A stretch of 64,000 nucleotides of DNA from Candidatus Nomurabacteria bacterium RIFCSPLOWO2_01_FULL_41_18 (lineage in GTDB: Bacteria; Patescibacteriota; Minisyncoccia; Phycocordibacterales; UBA9973), in the NCBI GenBank assembly GCA_001785865.1, contig MFUZ01000006.1:176880-240879 (forward strand). Reading direction: 5' to 3'. Of the stretch, positions 3,793 through 61,741 are shown piece by piece (positions within the stretch are counted from its first letter, which is position 1; every line of letters begins with the position of its first letter). The translations under genes were made by a program, and so were the position numbers. The notes beneath the pieces are model-generated. The model made no database searches. It had not been told where the DNA came from and saw only the letters and a program-made list of their open reading frames with translations.

Positions 3793-4908
3793 TCAAAAGA
3801 ATTTAACTATGTCATTAAAGGTCACGAGAACCATAAGCAATATCAGGATGCCGAAGCCGATCATATTGGCTGTATTGGCAACTTTCGGATTGATTCGCGA
3901 ACCCTTTATTTTTTCGATTAACAAGAAGAATAGCCGCCCGCCGTCTAGTGCTGGAAATGGCACCAGGTTGATCACCGCTAGGCTTACAGAGATGAGTGCA
4001 GCAAAAGACAATAAATACCCCACTCCTACGTCAAATACGACTCCAGTGACCTTGGCGAGCCCTACAGGGCCTATCACCGATTCGCGTATGGCCTTTGATT
4101 CCGGACCGCCAAAAACAAGCTTTTTGAGCCCTACAATCGTATCTCGAGAGGTAAGCAAGGTGGTTTGCAGGCCATAATTGATTGACTCAAAAAAATTGAA
4201 TTTTCCAGAGATTAAGGTATAAGGCATGATGCCGATCAAAGCTCGCCCGACTTCATCATTAGCTTCTGGAATCAGATCTACTGATTTTTCTTCGCCACTC
4301 CGCAGATAAGATATACGAATCGTTTCTCCTGGCTTGTCGGTAAAAGCGATGAATTCATCCAAGGTCGGCGTTTCCATTTTTTCATTATTTGTCTCTATAG
4401 CAGTCAAGATGTCTCCCGCTTCCAGTCCCGCTTTTTCCGCCGGACTTTTTGACGCCACTCCGAGCACTACTATCTTTTCTGTCATCTGCTCAAGGGCGCC
4501 TTTAGGAATACTGTCAGTCGCAAGCGGAGAACCAATAAAAAGCGTGCTCGCAAACAAGAGCCACGCCAAAAGGAAATTCATAAAGACTCCAGCAAACAAC
4601 ACTATCGCCTGTTTCCATTTCGCTTTATTGTAAAATTTTCTGTCTTCATCTGGGCCATTAGTATTTCTTGCTCCGTCCTTGGCAGGGTCATCATTTGGAT
4701 TCTCACCAAATATTTTAACAAATCCGCCTATGGGCAGGAGGTTTAGACTATATTCAGTTTCTCCAAATTTCTTGCCGAATATTTTAGGTGGGAAACCAAA
4801 ACCAAATTCATCCACGCGGATGCCGAACTTCTTCGCAGTAAAAAAATGTCCGAACTCGTGGACTAGGACCAGCACTAGTAGAATAATTATGAATATAATA
4901 ATTGACAT
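3793..4908 (-). CDS. rseP: RIP zinc metalloprotease (site-2 protease) with PDZ domain
   Basis: HEFGHFF zinc motif in TM1, an internal PDZ-like segment, and C-terminal TM helices. Confidence 0.8.
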   Translation of the reverse strand: MSIIIFIIILLVLVLVHEFGHFFTAKKFGIRVDEFGFGFPPKIFGKKFGETEYSLNLLPIGGFVKIFGENPNDDPAKDGARNTNGPDEDRKFYNKAKWKQAIVLFAGVFMNFLLAWLLFASTLFIGSPLATDSIPKGALEQMTEKIVVLGVASKSPAEKAGLEAGDILTAIETNNEKMETPTLDEFIAFTDKPGETIRISYLRSGEEKSVDLIPEANDEVGRALIGIMPYTLISGKFNFFESINYGLQTTLLTSRDTIVGLKKLVFGGPESKAIRESVIGPVGLAKVTGVVFDVGVGYLLSFAALISVSLAVINLVPFPALDGGRLFFLLIEKIKGSRINPKVANTANMIGFGILILLMVLVTFNDIVKFF

Positions 4909-4921
4909 GAATTTTTAGCAC

Positions 4922-5473
4922 CTAACCTAAGACTTCCTTCTGCTTTTTCTCGAAGCTTGCTTCCAGACTCTTATTCGCTTCGTCGATAATTTTTTGCAAC
5001 TCGTCTTTTGCTCGAAATTTATCATCATCTGTAAGTTTGCCTTCCTTGTGTTTCACTTCCACATCTTGCCAGACACGTTCTCGCTCACGACGCACCGTAA
5101 TCCTCTGCTCCTCTAATTTATCTTTCAAAACTTTTACGAGGTTTTGTCTTGTTTCTGTGGTTAGTTGTGGAAAAATAACTCTGATGCCCATGTCGTCAGT
5201 AGCTACTGACAATCCTAAATTTGAAGCATTTATAGCTTTCTCTATATCTTTAATTTGATTTTTATCAAAAGGAACAATGCGTATAGTTTTCGGATCTTCG
5301 ATAGATACAGAAGAAACATTCTTGAGTGGAACACGAGAACCATATGTTTCAACCGATACTCCATCCAAAACCATCGGCGAAGCCCGACCGATGTTTAATT
5401 GACTGTATTCCTTCCCCAAAAACTCCCCCACCTTTTTTATCTCTGTCTTAAAATTTGAAAAATTGTACTGCAT
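4922..5473 (-). CDS. frr: Ribosome recycling factor
   Basis: Full-length RRF-like sequence (183 aa) with the characteristic charged C-terminal helix. Confidence 0.9.
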   Translation of the reverse strand: MQYNFSNFKTEIKKVGEFLGKEYSQLNIGRASPMVLDGVSVETYGSRVPLKNVSSVSIEDPKTIRIVPFDKNQIKDIEKAINASNLGLSVATDDMGIRVIFPQLTTETRQNLVKVLKDKLEEQRITVRRERERVWQDVEVKHKEGKLTDDDKFRAKDELQKIIDEANKSLEASFEKKQKEVLG

Positions 5474-5526
5474 AACTTGATTATATCATACTTTTTAATT
5501 TAATAAATGTGCATAAAAAGAGAAAC

Positions 5527-5570
5527 CCGCCAAACGAACGGAGGGTTTCCTGTTCGGGCGGGTCGAATGA
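5527..5570 (-). terminator. GC-rich hairpin (CCCGCC...GGCGGG family) followed by a U-run on the minus strand
   Basis: aacccgccaaacgaacggagggtttcctgttcgggcggg. The minus-sense transcript ends ...hairpin-tttctcttttt. Confidence 0.5.
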
Positions 5571-5574
5571 ATTT

Positions 5575-6090
5575 TCAACTATGTGCTTTTTTTTGAAGCC
5601 TGTCAGCCTCGAAGCAATCTACCAACTGTTCAGCGCCACAGACAAGCACTCGAGCGTTCACTTGCGCAAGTTCCTCGTAAGGCCACCAGAAGCCCAGCCC
5701 ATCCTCTGAAGGACAAAAACAAATCTTTTTTTTGTCCTTTGAAACCTTGCTTGTAAATGCGACGAATCCCATTGACCAATCTCCGTAGCGTGGTACAACG
5801 TAATCAACGCCCCCAACAATTTGCGCCACTCCTGTTTTGGTTTTTGGTTGATGAAAGCTGCACAAGAAATTTGGGAAATAGATTCGCAGATGTCTGAGTG
5901 GGTTGTCGCCAAACTCGAAACATTTGTCAATATAACCCCAGATGTCTTCGAGAACTTGGCTCAGGGTATCGTCAAATTGTTTATCAACAGGATCGAAATC
6001 CTGAAAGGGATCGCCTGAGTAGTTAAGAACCTTGTTCCTTATCGGATACAAGTAATGGTCTTTTGCTTTTTTCATTTTTGGATTCTCCAA
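5575..6090 (-). CDS. Hypothetical protein, GC-rich relative to its neighbours (likely true start MKKAKDHY at about 6075)
   Basis: ORF with no recognisable motif. Its local GC is clearly higher than the flanking genes. It is driven by a consensus TTGACT-17-TATACT promoter. Confidence 0.45.
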   Translation of the reverse strand: MENPKMKKAKDHYLYPIRNKVLNYSGDPFQDFDPVDKQFDDTLSQVLEDIWGYIDKCFEFGDNPLRHLRIYFPNFLCSFHQPKTKTGVAQIVGGVDYVVPRYGDWSMGFVAFTSKVSKDKKKICFCPSEDGLGFWWPYEELAQVNARVLVCGAEQLVDCFEADRLQKKAHS

Positions 6091-6173
6091 AAGTCTCGCG
6101 GACTATCTCACACTTAGGAACATTCCTGTTGAAGCTTTGGTGACAAGCTTATGTTAAAGGACACTACACTTTA

Positions 6174-6202
6174 AGTATAGCATATCTACACCCAAAAGTC
6201 AA
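6174..6202 (-). promoter_or_regulatory. Sigma70 consensus promoter TTGACT-N17-TATACT (minus strand)
   Basis: rc of 6174-6202 = TTGACTtttgggtgtagatatgcTATACT. It is near-identical to the promoter at 60760-60788. Confidence 0.6.
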
Positions 6203-6224: not shown

Positions 6225-7925
6225 CTAGTAAACCTCCAACTGATAGCACTTCTCGCAATAAATTATTTTTGATTTATCTGGTGCATAACTTGTTTCAAAA
6301 GAAACCTCACACTTATTTTTATGATCATGATTTTCTTTATCACACATACAAGTTCTAGTCCAAAGTTTATTTGGCCCTCTATTTTGAAAACGTCTTATAT
6401 GCCGGCACTCTGGGCAATTTCTCGGAATCGGTATTTGCATTCTTTTATAAAAACCAAGTTCATCTTCTATAATTCTATAATTCTTTTTGCATTCTAAACA
6501 CACAAAAACTTCTTTACCCACATCAAAATCAGAAGGCAATTCTGAAATAGAATCTGGAAAAGTTTTCCAATCAACAGTTTCTTTTCCATAAGTTCCCCTC
6601 GGGGTATCTTCCCATTTGAAACCTTGCTTTAATGCTTCTTCTTTCGTAAGCGGAAATTCATCCATAACAGATGATTCATTGTAACCAAATGGAGAAAGCT
6701 CTTTTGGAAAGAAATCTCCATAAATCCCTTCTTGTGTCATTTTTGCAATTATTTCTGCGCGTAATTTTTTATATTCTTCTTTACTGTATTGTTTATTTAA
6801 AATACAATAAGAACCTTTTATTAAACCAGCGCAACCGAAACAATCTTTGGAATTTGGACAATTTGCACAATATTCCATAAACTGCGAACCCCAACACATC
6901 GATCCACAAATTACATTCGAGGCTTGTAGTCCTGTATTGTGACTATTGTAAATAAGTTCAGCAGAACGACCTGCTGTATTACAATCCACGCAATCCTTAG
7001 CTCCACGCCACACATGCACAGAATAAGCATTATCTTCTGCTTCATATGAATGAAAACAGTGATGATTGTTTTTTACATTAATCATGTAATTGCCTGTGGA
7101 ATTAACTGCGTTTGTGATTTCGGCAAATTTTCTCGGCTGATCTTTTAGGAAATTTTTATATTCTTTTCTGAAGGCTTCCACCCCAGTGTAAGTATCTAAT
7201 TTAAAAGATTTTAATTTTTTCTCATATTCTTCTTTTGAATATTGTGTATTGAAAATATTATACTTCTGTCCTCGTAAATTTATACAACCCAGACAATTCG
7301 TACAATTTCTGCAATTAAGTAAGAAAAAACTCTCTAGACAGTTGTAACACCCCTTTGAGAAGCGCAAAGAATGCGAGTCATAACAATCATCAACTTCATA
7401 AGAAAGTTCAACTTTATTGGTAAAAGAACAATCAGCTAAATCTTTTGAAAGTTGTATCCAGTGGCAATTTATGCAGTTTTCGTTATTGGAAGATTCCGTA
7501 ATTACATAACAATTTTTGTTGTCAGCTGCAAAATTAAGATAACTTGAATTTACACTTCTTTCATGAATAAGTGAAAGTTTCGGAACTTTATTCCACAACT
7601 CATTAAACTGCTCAAAAAATGTTTTTTCTGAATCATAATTTTGAGCGTATTTTTTGGCGTCCAAATCATCACTCCACCAACAGTCATGACACCAGACAGG
7701 ATAAGTTTTATTGGGGCTAAATATAGAAATGTGATCTTTTTTACAGTTATCACATTTGTGCTTATAAAAAAATCTTTCATTTTTAAAACAAAGCCGGAGT
7801 TGCATTCGGCATTCTGGACAAAGTTTGGGTGGTAACACCTCCATTTTTTCATAAAACCCAAAATCATTCGGCTCAATAGTGAAATCTTTTTTACAGTTTT
7901 GGCAAATTTTTGTTTGTTGATTCAT
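6225..7925 (-). CDS. Cysteine-rich protein with N- and C-terminal CxxC...CPECR zinc ribbons and an internally duplicated CxxC-repeat core
   Basis: N-terminal ICQNCKKDFTIEPNDFGFYEKMEVLPPKLCPECR matches C-terminal VCLECKKNYRIIEDELGFYKRMQIPIPRNCPECR. The core has many [DNG]CxxC units, and its two halves both end in N.QYSKEEY.KKL. Confidence 0.6.
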   Translation of the reverse strand: MNQQTKICQNCKKDFTIEPNDFGFYEKMEVLPPKLCPECRMQLRLCFKNERFFYKHKCDNCKKDHISIFSPNKTYPVWCHDCWWSDDLDAKKYAQNYDSEKTFFEQFNELWNKVPKLSLIHERSVNSSYLNFAADNKNCYVITESSNNENCINCHWIQLSKDLADCSFTNKVELSYEVDDCYDSHSLRFSKGCYNCLESFFLLNCRNCTNCLGCINLRGQKYNIFNTQYSKEEYEKKLKSFKLDTYTGVEAFRKEYKNFLKDQPRKFAEITNAVNSTGNYMINVKNNHHCFHSYEAEDNAYSVHVWRGAKDCVDCNTAGRSAELIYNSHNTGLQASNVICGSMCWGSQFMEYCANCPNSKDCFGCAGLIKGSYCILNKQYSKEEYKKLRAEIIAKMTQEGIYGDFFPKELSPFGYNESSVMDEFPLTKEEALKQGFKWEDTPRGTYGKETVDWKTFPDSISELPSDFDVGKEVFVCLECKKNYRIIEDELGFYKRMQIPIPRNCPECRHIRRFQNRGPNKLWTRTCMCDKENHDHKNKCEVSFETSYAPDKSKIIYCEKCYQLEVY

Positions 7926-8660: not shown

Positions 8661-8677
8661 GTGAATATTTTTTAAAT

Positions 8678-8812
8678 TAATAGCTTCTCTCGAAAAGCAA
8701 TCTATCTGGCAAAGCTTTGCCAGCGAACTGCTCGTCGCTCAAGAAAATAATAATCGGAATACCTATTTTATTTTCTAAGCTTCTGCGCAAGGCTTTTCTT
8801 AAGAACTATTTA
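8678..8812 (-). repeat. Dispersed ~134-bp repeat, copy 1 (inverted relative to copy 2), with an internal 18-bp palindrome CTGGCAAAGCTTTGCCAG
   Basis: The reverse complement of 8678-8812 aligns to 12112-12250 with about 95% identity (roughly 6 mismatches in 134). It is intergenic, between holB and mreB. Confidence 0.75.
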
Positions 8813-12111: not shown

Positions 12112-12250
12112 AAAAAACAAATAGTTCTTAAGAAAAGCCTTGCGCAAGAGCTTAGAAAATAAATGAGGTATTCCGAATATTATTTTCTTGAGCGATGAGC
12201 AGTTCGCTGGCAAAGCTTTGCCAGATAGATTGCTTTTCGAGAGAAGCTAT
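12112..12250 (+). repeat. Dispersed ~134-bp repeat, copy 2, forming an inverted pair with copy 1
   Basis: About 95% identical to rc(8678-8812). It is intergenic, between atpD and atpC. Confidence 0.75.
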
Positions 12251-12312
12251 TTATTTTTTAAATTACAGTGCACCCTTCCCATTCTTCGCTAACGCTCATC
12301 AGGACTTCGGCG

Positions 12313-49042: not shown

Positions 49043-49071
49043 GTTGACTTCTGTTGATTTAGGTTTTATAA
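49043..49071 (+). promoter_or_regulatory. Perfect sigma70 consensus promoter TTGACT-N17-TATAAT (plus strand, divergent from mraZ)
   Basis: ttgact-tctgttgatttaggttt-tataat. Confidence 0.6.
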
Positions 49072-49077
49072 TTAGAA

Positions 49078-49142
49078 TGTTTGGTTCCCCGAGGGGGGTC
49101 GTACCTGCGTGCATTTCAGGCCGACCTCCCTCACTTTTCTTG
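49078..49142 (+). ncRNA. Candidate ~65-nt small RNA: consensus promoter followed directly by an 11-bp GC hairpin and a U-run
   Basis: GAGGGGGGTCG-loop20-CGACCTCCCTC then ACTTTTCTT. There is no ORF downstream on the plus strand. Confidence 0.35.
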
Positions 49143-49250
49143 AAAAAAATACAAGAAAAAGGTGTCTAAAAAACGCCCATATCAAAATGATGTCCCGAGA
49201 ATCCCTGTGGTTCACGGGCATTTTCTATTTTTGGATAATTTTTACTCTTT

Positions 49251-60169: not shown

Positions 60170-60341
60170 CAGCTACATAAAACAAACCCACTGCTGGGCT
60201 TTTTTATGTGCTGTGACGACCGCAGTGATGTTTTGTCAGTAGACAAAACCACGAGGAGCGGACTGCGAAAATTCTGAGTGACGAAGAAGAATTATTTGTG
60301 GTCACATTTTTGTAAAAAATTGCAAAAAAAAGTGGCCTGCG

Positions 60342-60366
60342 TTTTCCACGCAGGCCAGTGCACCCA
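60342..60366 (-). terminator. Hairpin GGCCTGCGT-tttcc-ACGCAGGCC with a U-run on the minus strand
   Basis: Minus sense: ...GGCCTGCGTGGAAAACGCAGGCCACTTTTTTTTGC. Confidence 0.5.
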
Positions 60367-60759
60367 ATTTGTAGTTATACGAACCTACTGCTTACGCAAA
60401 CCTCATCACCCGATCCTGATCACCACTCCTCCTCCAGTCGGCGACAATGCCACGACTGGTTGGACGAGAAATCAATCTCGGATCATGCCACGTCCTGAAT
60501 CTGATGGTGGGACGATCCAAGCGAACAGGATTTGCTGAGGTTTCTTTGAGACCCTGCCTTACTGCAGGCGCCGTTGCGTTTTGCGTTTGCATTTTTTTTG
60601 TTTTTCGTTTTTGGTTTTACGTTGCTGCTCTTGGTTGAGGAACCAATATGTCGGTGGAGAACCGACACCGAAGAACAGCTTCAAAAAGACTGTACCACAT
60701 CTTCTTTAATAAAGCAATTTTTCCACAATCCCTTTAAAAATAAGCCTAAAAATCAGTGA

Positions 60760-60788
60760 TTGACTTTTGAGTATGAATATGCTATACT
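60760..60788 (+). promoter_or_regulatory. Sigma70 consensus promoter TTGACT-N17-TATACT (plus strand), a twin of the promoter at 6174-6202
   Basis: ttgact-tttgagtatgaatatgc-tatact. Confidence 0.6.
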
Positions 60789-60862
60789 GTAGAGAGTAGG
60801 TAGTAAATAGTTCAAACAACGGTCTCCTTAAAATGGGGACTGCAACAATTCAACCGAAAGAG

Positions 60863-61057
60863 ATTATGAAGTCAAAAAATTCACTCAATGCGAAGTGGTC
60901 TCGGCAAAGATACGAAGACAACAACGAGATCATGAGACTTGGGATATGGGGCATGGCATCGGCTACAGCAGTTTGGTTCACAATCTGCGCCACTTGTAGC
61001 AACGAGTCGGCAACGCATCTGGTGGACTGCTTCCGACACATCGTCGCCAACTGGTAA
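60863..61057 (+). CDS. GC-rich small ORF (about 63 aa) between a consensus promoter and a hairpin terminator. It could alternatively be an ncRNA.
   Basis: RBS gaaagag is 5 nt upstream. Terminator at 61080-61120 (GAGCGCCAAGG...CCTTCGGCGCT plus a T-run). Confidence 0.3.
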   Translation: MMKSKNSLNAKWSRQRYEDNNEIMRLGIWGMASATAVWFTICATCSNESATHLVDCFRHIVANW

Positions 61058-61144
61058 TCTCATGAAAACATCAAATCGTCGAGCGCCAAGGTTCTATTCC
61101 TTCGGCGCTTTACTGTTTTTATATATACTTTATAATCATACTTA

Positions 61145-61741
61145 ATGACTAAAAAAGAAGAACTAGAGAATTTACATAATAAATGGAAACAAGAATGCTC
61201 GTGCGAACTTAAAAAAACAGCCACGCAGGCAGTGCCAGGGGCTGGCAGCCCTGATGCAGAGATAGTCTTTATCGGAGAAGCGCCAGGAAAGAAGGAAGAC
61301 GAACTCGGAATCCCATTTGTCGGATCTGCGGGGAAATTCTTGGACGAAATGCTAGGGTTGATAAATTTAAAAAGAGAAGATATATACATCACAAACGTAG
61401 TAAAGTACCGCCCGCCAAACAATCGCGATCCTAGCCCCGAAGAAAAAAGTGCCTGCCGAGAATGGCTCTTGGAAGAGCTTAAAATAATTTCCCCAAAACT
61501 CATAATCTTCCTCGGGCGTCATGCAATGAACAATTTCTTTCCAGAACTCCAGATATCCGGCGCGCATGGTAAATTATTAATCAAATCTTTCAAAGATATA
61601 TCTACAAAATATTTCTTCCCTCTTTATCATCCAGCAGCTGCTCTGTATGACGGCTCTATGCGTGAAACTTTAAAAGACGATTTTAAAAAAATTCCGAAAG
61701 TCTTGAAGGAGATAGAGAAACGTGAAGAAAAAGCAAATTAG
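61145..61741 (+). CDS. udg: Uracil-DNA glycosylase, family 4
   Basis: GEAPGKKEDELGIPFVGSAGKFLD motif (GE[AG]PG...G.PF.G.AG). Confidence 0.8.
   Translation: MTKKEELENLHNKWKQECSCELKKTATQAVPGAGSPDAEIVFIGEAPGKKEDELGIPFVGSAGKFLDEMLGLINLKREDIYITNVVKYRPPNNRDPSPEEKSACREWLLEELKIISPKLIIFLGRHAMNNFFPELQISGAHGKLLIKSFKDISTKYFFPLYHPAAALYDGSMRETLKDDFKKIPKVLKEIEKREEKAN

Follow-up and report, generated by a model that had tools for sequence, protein, structure and literature searches.

Two promoters of near-identical sequence, found in the 64-kb window (i.e., the whole stretch of DNA that was analysed), most likely owe their likeness to convergence on an optimum that is widespread in CPR, Firmicutes and phages. 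The best explanation, which we hold to be probable, is that of two independent single-gene units, A and B, in each of which a near-optimal housekeeping sigma-70 promoter would have been gained or favoured by selection; unit A would have a gated leader and unit B would be a recent acquisition. The promoter likeness alone adds little and is an ordinary observation. The main interest lies outside the original claim of a portable module: family A, with its leader that is absent from Rfam, offers a tractable case of a possible new regulatory RNA. To our knowledge, almost nothing is known of gene regulation in CPR.

Sequence and geometry of the two promoters

The two promoters are located as follows.

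6174..6202, minus strand: promoter A, with -35 TTGACT (6202-6197), 17-nt spacer and -10 TATACT (6179-6174)
60760..60788, plus strand: promoter B, with TTGACT, 17-nt spacer including TATGc, and TATACT

The 29-mer of promoter A (reverse complement of 6174-6202) is TTGACTTTTGGGTGTAGATATGCTATACT and that of promoter B (60760-60788) is TTGACTTTTGAGTATGAATATGCTATACT. The sequence-only reading had placed both on the right strands, with the right TTGACT-17-TATACT architecture, to which a TG before the -10 can be added in both cases; it had counted 26 matches upon 29, the actual value being 25. The form common to both promoters is TTGACTTTT...ATATGCTATACT. The four mismatches (positions 11, 14, 16 and 17) are all purine-purine, i.e., transitions, and lie inside the central spacer, the 7 central bases of which match at 3 positions. 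The spacer of promoter A contains a T-run and TATGc (-16 TRTG / extended -10). For both promoters the -35 (TTGACT) agrees with TTGACA, and the -10 (TATACT) with TATAAT, at 5 positions out of 6. With a TG one base 5' of the -10 (TATGc then TATACT) and a spacer of 17 nt, both have the characteristics of extended -10 sigma-70 promoters. As judged from their sequence, transcription would start near 6167 (minus strand) for unit A and near 60795 (plus strand) for unit B. The tRNA genes of the window have an extended -10 only (TGtTATAgT), without -35.

When 230 nt around each site are aligned, the likeness begins at the -35 and ends at the -10, and no homology is found on either side of the 29-mers. 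A degenerate search of the 29-mer in the 64-kb window gives two matches only, i.e., promoters A and B, and none in 100 shuffles. There are thus no copies in the window beyond this pair; across other genomes the same fixed bases precede unrelated genes.

Recurrence of the promoter form in other genomes and in phages

The pattern TTGACTTTTG-N7-ATATGCTATACT, which represents the 22 bases common to A and B outside the central spacer, was searched for in one genome per species (596 Gb). Its chance expectation is estimated at 0.07 (uniform composition) to 0.5 (35% GC). The pattern is present in 36 species genomes: 17 are labelled CPR (Nomura-, Yonath- and Saccharibacteria, Paceibacterota), 13 are Clostridia/Oscillospiraceae and a few belong to other groups; CPR are strongly over-represented among these exact matches (17/36). 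It is also present in 15 phage contigs. The genes located 3' of the matches are unrelated: type IV pilin, leaderless secreted proteins, xpt, alcohol dehydrogenase, radical-SAM activase and small phage proteins. Since the 22 shared bases recur before unrelated genes in 36 genomes and 15 phage contigs, the likeness is best read as convergence and not as common descent. The sequence-only reading had itself proposed that its module would fall if the 29-mer preceded many ordinary housekeeping genes, being then simply the strong-promoter consensus of the organism; this is nearly what is observed, not inside this genome but in a range of others, both related and unrelated.

The syntenic Nomurabacteria loci (353 kb) contain four promoters with TTGAC and an extended -10 (TTGAC..TGnTAYANT), three of which read ATATGCTA. 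The shorter form TTGAC-N12-ATATGCTATACT is found in at least 120 phage contigs. Among the matches listed, T follows TTGAC in 30 of 108 distinct promoters of this form, and in 14 of these 30 the T is itself continued by a T-run. TTTTG after TTGACT (positions 6-10 of A/B) is found at most 5 times among the 108 distinct promoters listed, i.e., at most about 5%. The TRTG / TRTGn «-16» is a known extended -10 motif of Firmicutes, and the AT tract adjoining the -35 has been described previously (bioRxiv 10.1101/2025.01.23.634641; PMC6570832). The -16 TRTGn extended -10 is of the Gram-positive type (Voskuil & Chambliss, cited in PMC6570832).

The bases shared by A and B would thus represent the optimum of the clade: -35 TTGACT, T-run by the -35, TRTG -16/extended -10 (TATGc) and -10 TATACT. 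The two 29-mers are alike because almost every shared base belongs to this optimum: 17 to 18 of the 25 matches are consensus contacts, and the T-run is a common accompaniment. The four mismatches would lie where no base preference was seen, i.e., in the central spacer, and a 3/7 match there is judged to be about that expected by chance for an AT-rich spacer. Against convergence, A and B share, once the consensus has been allowed for, the TTTTG of positions 6-10 mentioned above as infrequent; a short copying event may therefore have taken place, but is less likely than convergence. CPR (Patescibacteria) use the same composite optimum (-35, T-run, TRTG, -10) as Firmicutes and phages, and near-identical 29-mers are therefore no evidence of mobility.

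A quite different reading of the shared spacer would make it an operator, A and B belonging to one regulon whose DNA-binding protein reads between the -35 and the -10. It could account for the identity, at 8 of 11 positions, of spacer bases that are not needed by RNA polymerase. However, what is conserved in the spacer is a T-run and the ATA preceding TG, both of which recur in unrelated taxa and phages, the variable centre is precisely where the conservation of an operator would be expected, and no palindrome is seen by eye in the spacer. This reading is thus considered highly improbable, and convergence is retained.

The matches of the 22-base pattern give a further observation, which concerns the sequence 3' of the promoter. 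A position-locked «+10 box», YYTTTRAHA (typically GGTTCTTTGAAAA), is found in 7 of 22 CPR promoter matches and in 0 of 15 non-CPR ones, for an expectation of about 0.026 per 45-nt stretch. It is at the locked position in 6 of the 7 (L015, L018, L027, L028, L035 and L036), 15-17 nt past the -10, and all 6 transcripts have long leaders (85-163 nt). Promoter A carries CCTTTAACA at this position (6160-6152 of the window). Several CPR genes behind this strong promoter are leaderless (L016, L026, L029 and L033). In the window, TATAAT is found 6-8 nt 5' of the ATG of frr (5473-5490) and of UDG (61131-61147), which suggests that the frr and UDG mRNAs may be leaderless.

Unit A: leader, protein family and flanks

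Unit A is located between the gene of a 566-aa zinc-ribbon protein and frr, an arrangement that recurs in many metagenome contigs. Its features are the following.

6076..6167, minus strand: the roughly 91-nt 5' leader of gene A, counted from the inferred start
6160-6152, minus strand: CCTTTAACA of the leader
6150-6132, minus strand: leader hairpin AAGCUU-GUCACCA-AAGCUU
6126-6117, minus strand: leader hairpin GGAAUGUUCC
6104-6092, minus strand: conserved-core hairpin of the leader, AGUC-CGCGA-GACU
about 6091-6077, minus strand: leader hairpin sequestering the Shine-Dalgarno GGAG
5575..6075, minus strand: gene A, 166 aa, ATG 6075
5515..5564, minus strand: intrinsic terminator of unit A, hairpin 5564-5524 followed by UUUCUCUUUUU

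Gene A likely starts at ATG 6075, with GGAG 9 nt 5', and the protein, previously read as 171 aa, has most likely 166 aa. The mRNA of unit A would consist of the structured leader of about 91 nt and of this 166-aa protein.

The leader is conserved in 8 of the 10 family-A loci examined (the window, L001, L064, L065, L262, L263, L264 and L265); its motif is missing from the divergent members L066 and L068. About 45 nt 5' of the start are conserved and read AAG(C/U)G(G)UGA(A/G)NU - NNUC CGYGA GANN - NN - (N)GGAGAAUCC(N) - AUG. The NNUC/GANN stem changes across members from AGUC/GACU to GAUC/GAUC or AAUC/GAUU; two of its pairs covary (AU in 6 and GC in 2 for the first, GC in 5 and AU in 3 for the second) and none is broken, the 8 sequences representing effectively 3 pair states. 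Mean identity is 80% in the 30-nt core, vs. 60% for the DNA of the coding sequence and 35% for the protein. Upstream in-frame starts are not conserved, and the conservation of the leader therefore acts at the RNA level. The GGAG hairpin, which is predicted for the majority of the members, abuts AUG, and compensatory changes are seen in its lower stem. The leader may also adopt alternative structures, since for two members the fold of minimum energy has UCCGCG paired with UGUGGA instead.

A covariance model of the leader matches the window at 6074-6115 with 57 bits. Only the 8 training loci scored well with this model, which is so by construction; no convincing further copy was obtained, and the single other match (E=0.43) is probably due to chance. 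The core motif is found only 5' of family-A genes in the 1.86 Mb of fetched loci and was not found in viral contigs. For leader A and transcript B, no match was obtained with Rfam (gathering and permissive thresholds) and ARAGORN, the best E values being 0.59-2.1 with snoRNA models; on the whole window, Rfam at gathering threshold gives tRNAs only.

The strong transcription of unit A would probably be gated at translation. The Shine-Dalgarno GGAG would be held in the conserved hairpin next to the start codon, 3' of the covarying NNUC-CGYGA-GANN hairpin, which probably binds a factor or a ligand. The leader may thus be a translational gate run by a ligand or by a protein, perhaps protein A itself. 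It may tentatively be proposed that the leader is a new class of cis-regulatory RNA (riboswitch or autoregulatory protein-binding), which would govern a protein of novel fold restricted to CPR, the whole (promoter, leader, gene, terminator) moving between chromosomal sites as a small self-contained cassette. Hints of such a behaviour are given by direct repeats in L262, by the repeat-bounded 892-nt L001 and by a terminator common to the window and L263.

In L262 the family-A cassette is bounded by 49-nt direct repeats (96%; 4810-4858 and 5582-5630), made of a terminator hairpin. Contig L001 has the same 18-mer at both ends (1-18 and 893-910), i.e., a period of 892. Cassette A itself has a 14-nt repeat (13/14; 5469-5482 and 6282-6295, 813 nt apart), which could be due to chance. 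No repeats flank the other family-A genes. With its 892-nt period and identical 18-nt ends, L001 was considered as a viroid- or Obelisk-like circle; this was rejected, the predicted fold being not rod-like and the family being otherwise chromosomal, on contigs of up to 681 kb.

Terminator A has a folding energy of -23.1 kcal/mol (z -3.8) and is followed by a U-run. Its hairpin (5524-5564) is nearly identical to the L263 terminator 3' of 1103 (CCCGCCCGAACAGGAAnCCCUCCG...GGCGGG), although gene A and the L263 family protein are only about 38% identical. It should also be noted that the loop of the A/L263 terminator has CCUCC, complementary to the GGAG of the leader. As for the neighbouring 566-aa Cys-rich protein (6225-7925, minus strand), it has many CxxC pairs and a weak treble-clef zinc-finger match in Pfam, and its N-terminal segment is weakly repeated near the C-terminus (24% over 93 aa).

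The NCBI «hypothetical protein A2738_01265» of Candidatus Nomurabacteria (CPR) has the same sequence as protein A. Both cargoes had been described as orphans: this stands for B, which matches itself only, and fails for A, which has one homologue at 44% identity and a family in which an exhaustive profile search counts 68 or more cluster representatives (E<=1e-3), of which 29 reach E<=1e-10. Except for one marginal match of 654 aa, the length of the members ranges from 117 to 271 aa, mostly 140-200 aa (typically about 150-190 aa), and the conserved core of the alignment is NPLxHLRxYFPxF...DY.W...DWS.G..TA...ICF.P...WP. Each member occurs as a single gene, and the chromosomal surroundings are unrelated from one to the next: it may follow truB and an RRM protein, follow gyrA or, on a 681-kb contig, precede a DEAD helicase. 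The two members carrying an organism name belong to Nomurabacteria and Paceibacterota, and family A appears to be CPR-restricted.

Protein A gives nothing above curated cut-offs in Pfam, PHROGs, NCBIfam and PADLOC; the best E values are 0.12 vs. PDB by profile search and, with Foldseek, 0.78 vs. PDB and 0.57 vs. BFVD. The AF2 (AlphaFold) model has a pLDDT of 91.7 and a pTM of 0.87, i.e., a confident fold, which looks novel. Family A is previously unnamed and uncharacterised.

Unit B and the tRNA-Glu/UDG gap

Unit B is flanked by tRNA-Glu and a family-4 UDG. Its features, and those of the region that contains it, are the following.

60795..61080, plus strand: body of transcript B (inferred), with ORFs of 63 aa (ATG 60866) and 74 aa (ATG 60833), both ending at 61057
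61081..61120, plus strand: intrinsic terminator of unit B, GAGCGCCAAGG...CCUUCGGCGCU followed by UUUACUGUUUUU
60307..61252, no strand assigned: lineage-specific variable island, from the conserved element after tRNA-Glu to about codon 36 of UDG, with unit B and a divergent minus-strand segment

Terminator B (-22 kcal/mol, z -5.8, then U-run) overlaps by its tail the -35 of the UDG promoter. The GC hairpin terminators announced behind both ORFs are thus present, each with a U-run. The two cargoes had also been described as GC-rich, which holds weakly: the GC content is 44% for the coding sequence of A and 46.5% for transcript B vs. 40% for the window, i.e., inside the range of the ordinary long ORFs of the window (33-51%). 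When GC and codon usage are compared within the window, GC is only weakly raised and codon usage is atypical at both loci. The codon log-likelihood of gene A is 0.10 in frame, with a clear frame discrimination.

It is less likely that transcript B comes from a conserved protein gene than that it is a non-coding RNA or encodes a small peptide specific to the lineage. It is possible, though doubtful, that cargo B truly codes for a protein, a small membrane or toxin-like peptide of 63 aa, rather than being an RNA gene: an uninterrupted ATG ORF lies between promoter and terminator, and its product would have a basic N-terminus followed by a moderately to weakly hydrophobic 20-residue segment, LGIWGMASATAVWFTICATC (read by eye). 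However, no homologue other than ORF B itself was found among 5.8 billion proteins, and the ORF has no strong Shine-Dalgarno. With values of -0.04 to -0.11, its codon log-likelihood falls short of 0.09, the 5th percentile of genuine 63-codon windows, and does not exceed that of an antisense frame; no frame stands out. Moreover, four frames of this stretch contain ORFs of 60-74 aa. It was also considered whether B could be a degenerate paralogue of A, both having «LVDCF»; this was rejected, the family profile matching gene A only in the six-frame translation of the window. A search for base-pairing of B or of the segment preceding it with the rest of the window gave only short matches at chance level.

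The synteny tRNA-Glu ... UDG-glmU-like-gdh is kept in 80 related metagenome loci, in which 2 nt to more than 2 kb separate tRNA-Glu from UDG, with a cargo that differs by lineage; no relative of B was found by blastn in these 80 gaps. Locus L098, a strain variant, matches the window at 99.6% identity past position 61253 and is unrelated before it, and B is absent from this locus. The identity starts at 61253, which places a recombination breakpoint inside UDG, at about codon 36, and suggests homologous recombination rather than site-specific insertion. No convincing att-like repeats surround the island, and blastn of the island against phage and plasmid collections gave no match. Unit B would be a recent arrival in a hypervariable gap, with a transcript of about 320 nt.

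Two further segments of this region may be mentioned. Divergent from promoter B, the minus-strand segment 60318-60690 has a very stable fold (z -5.0) and contains a terminator (60357-60333) with a 10-bp GC stem and T8; neither a conserved ORF, nor a Rfam match, nor a homologue in the related loci was found, and the segment suggests a divergent candidate RNA of about 370 nt. Directly 3' of tRNA-Glu, the element 60175-60306 (plus strand) is 88% identical in L142 (1558-1690) and is also present in L081, L104 and L080; it has a covarying hairpin (GTTTTGTC/GACAAAAC vs. GTTTTGCC/GGCAAAAC) and a fold with z -2.8.

Probable independent origin of the two units

The sequence-only reading had seen in the two loci one portable promoter-cargo-terminator module, possibly left by a plasmid, a phage or a moron. 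What remains of it is the description of self-contained promoter-cargo-terminator units with atypical codon usage, to which may be added the hypervariable gap of unit B, the unrelated settings of the family-A genes and the direct repeats of L262; the common descent of the two loci is not supported. The flank alignment gives no homology beyond the promoter consensus, the profile search finds the cargoes unrelated, and the shared bases are the consensus and a common T-run. Neither cargo matches phage or plasmid collections. A phage or plasmid origin is considered unlikely on the following grounds: (i) neither the B island nor protein A gave a match by blastn or tblastn; (ii) PHROGs and PADLOC gave no match; (iii) no copy of the leader motif was found in viral contigs.

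There is a narrower version of this idea, in which only the promoter is a short portable element, copied from A to B, from B to A or from a common mobile source, and set before a different cargo. It would agree with the inclusion, in the 25/29 identity, of the infrequent TTTTG after the -35, with mismatches that are transitions in 4 cases out of 4, with the atypical codon usage of both cargoes, with the position of unit B inside a variable island adjoining a tRNA gene, and with the direct repeats of L262 and the common 18-mer of the L001 ends. On the contrary, the homology stops at the edges of the 29-mer and the central bases match at about chance level; outside the consensus, promoter A is unlike those of the other family-A members, and the fixed bases are met again, independently, in phages and in distant phyla. 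Moreover, there is no phage or plasmid match, and no recombinase was found near units A or B. A portable promoter is thus unlikely. With convergence as the preferred reading, locus A and locus B are each self-contained and were probably acquired.

Other elements of the window

A third full promoter, TTGACT-17-TATAAT, is located in the gap between mraZ and lysS (49044-49245, plus strand), which has no plus-strand ORF. The 160 nt or so 3' of this promoter fold stably (z -3.8) and end with a hairpin and a U-run; there is no Rfam match, and the segment is a candidate small RNA. A 138-nt intergenic repeat is present at 8674-8811 and 12119-12256 (95% identical, inverted, 3.4 kb apart) and folds as a closed multibranch structure (z about -4). 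The pair could represent small RNA paralogues or a miniature repeat element. The window thus yields several candidate small RNAs, in addition to the promoter-proximal «+10 box» of CPR long-leader transcripts.

Comparison with known systems

Phage morons are promoter-gene-terminator units inserted between phage genes. Like them, units A and B are self-contained single-gene units with their own strong promoter, an intrinsic terminator and an atypical codon usage. They differ from morons by their flanks, which are housekeeping genes (zinc-ribbon protein/frr for A, tRNA-Glu/UDG for B) and not a prophage: the neighbours are frr, rseP, holB, mreB, tRNA-Glu, UDG, glmU-like and gdh. Units A and B had no match in phage and plasmid collections.

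The gap of unit B resembles tRNA-adjacent genomic islets by its position next to tRNA-Glu, its variable size (2 nt to more than 2 kb) and its different small cargoes. It differs from them since the island has neither an integrase nor a duplicated tRNA 3' end or att-like repeat.

Leader A differs from the leaders known to sequester the Shine-Dalgarno (riboswitch expression platforms, autoregulatory leaders of ribosomal proteins) in that it matches no Rfam family and precedes a family without known function. It has in common with them (i) a long leader conserved above the coding sequence; (ii) a covarying hairpin with an invariant loop; (iii) a GGAG within the hairpin adjacent to the start; (iv) predicted alternative pairings.

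As for the promoters, those of the sigma-70/SigA TRTGn type have the same TTGACT -35, the same 17-bp spacer, the same TATG-C abutting TATACT and the same T/A tract by the -35. Promoters A and B have no structural difference with this type.
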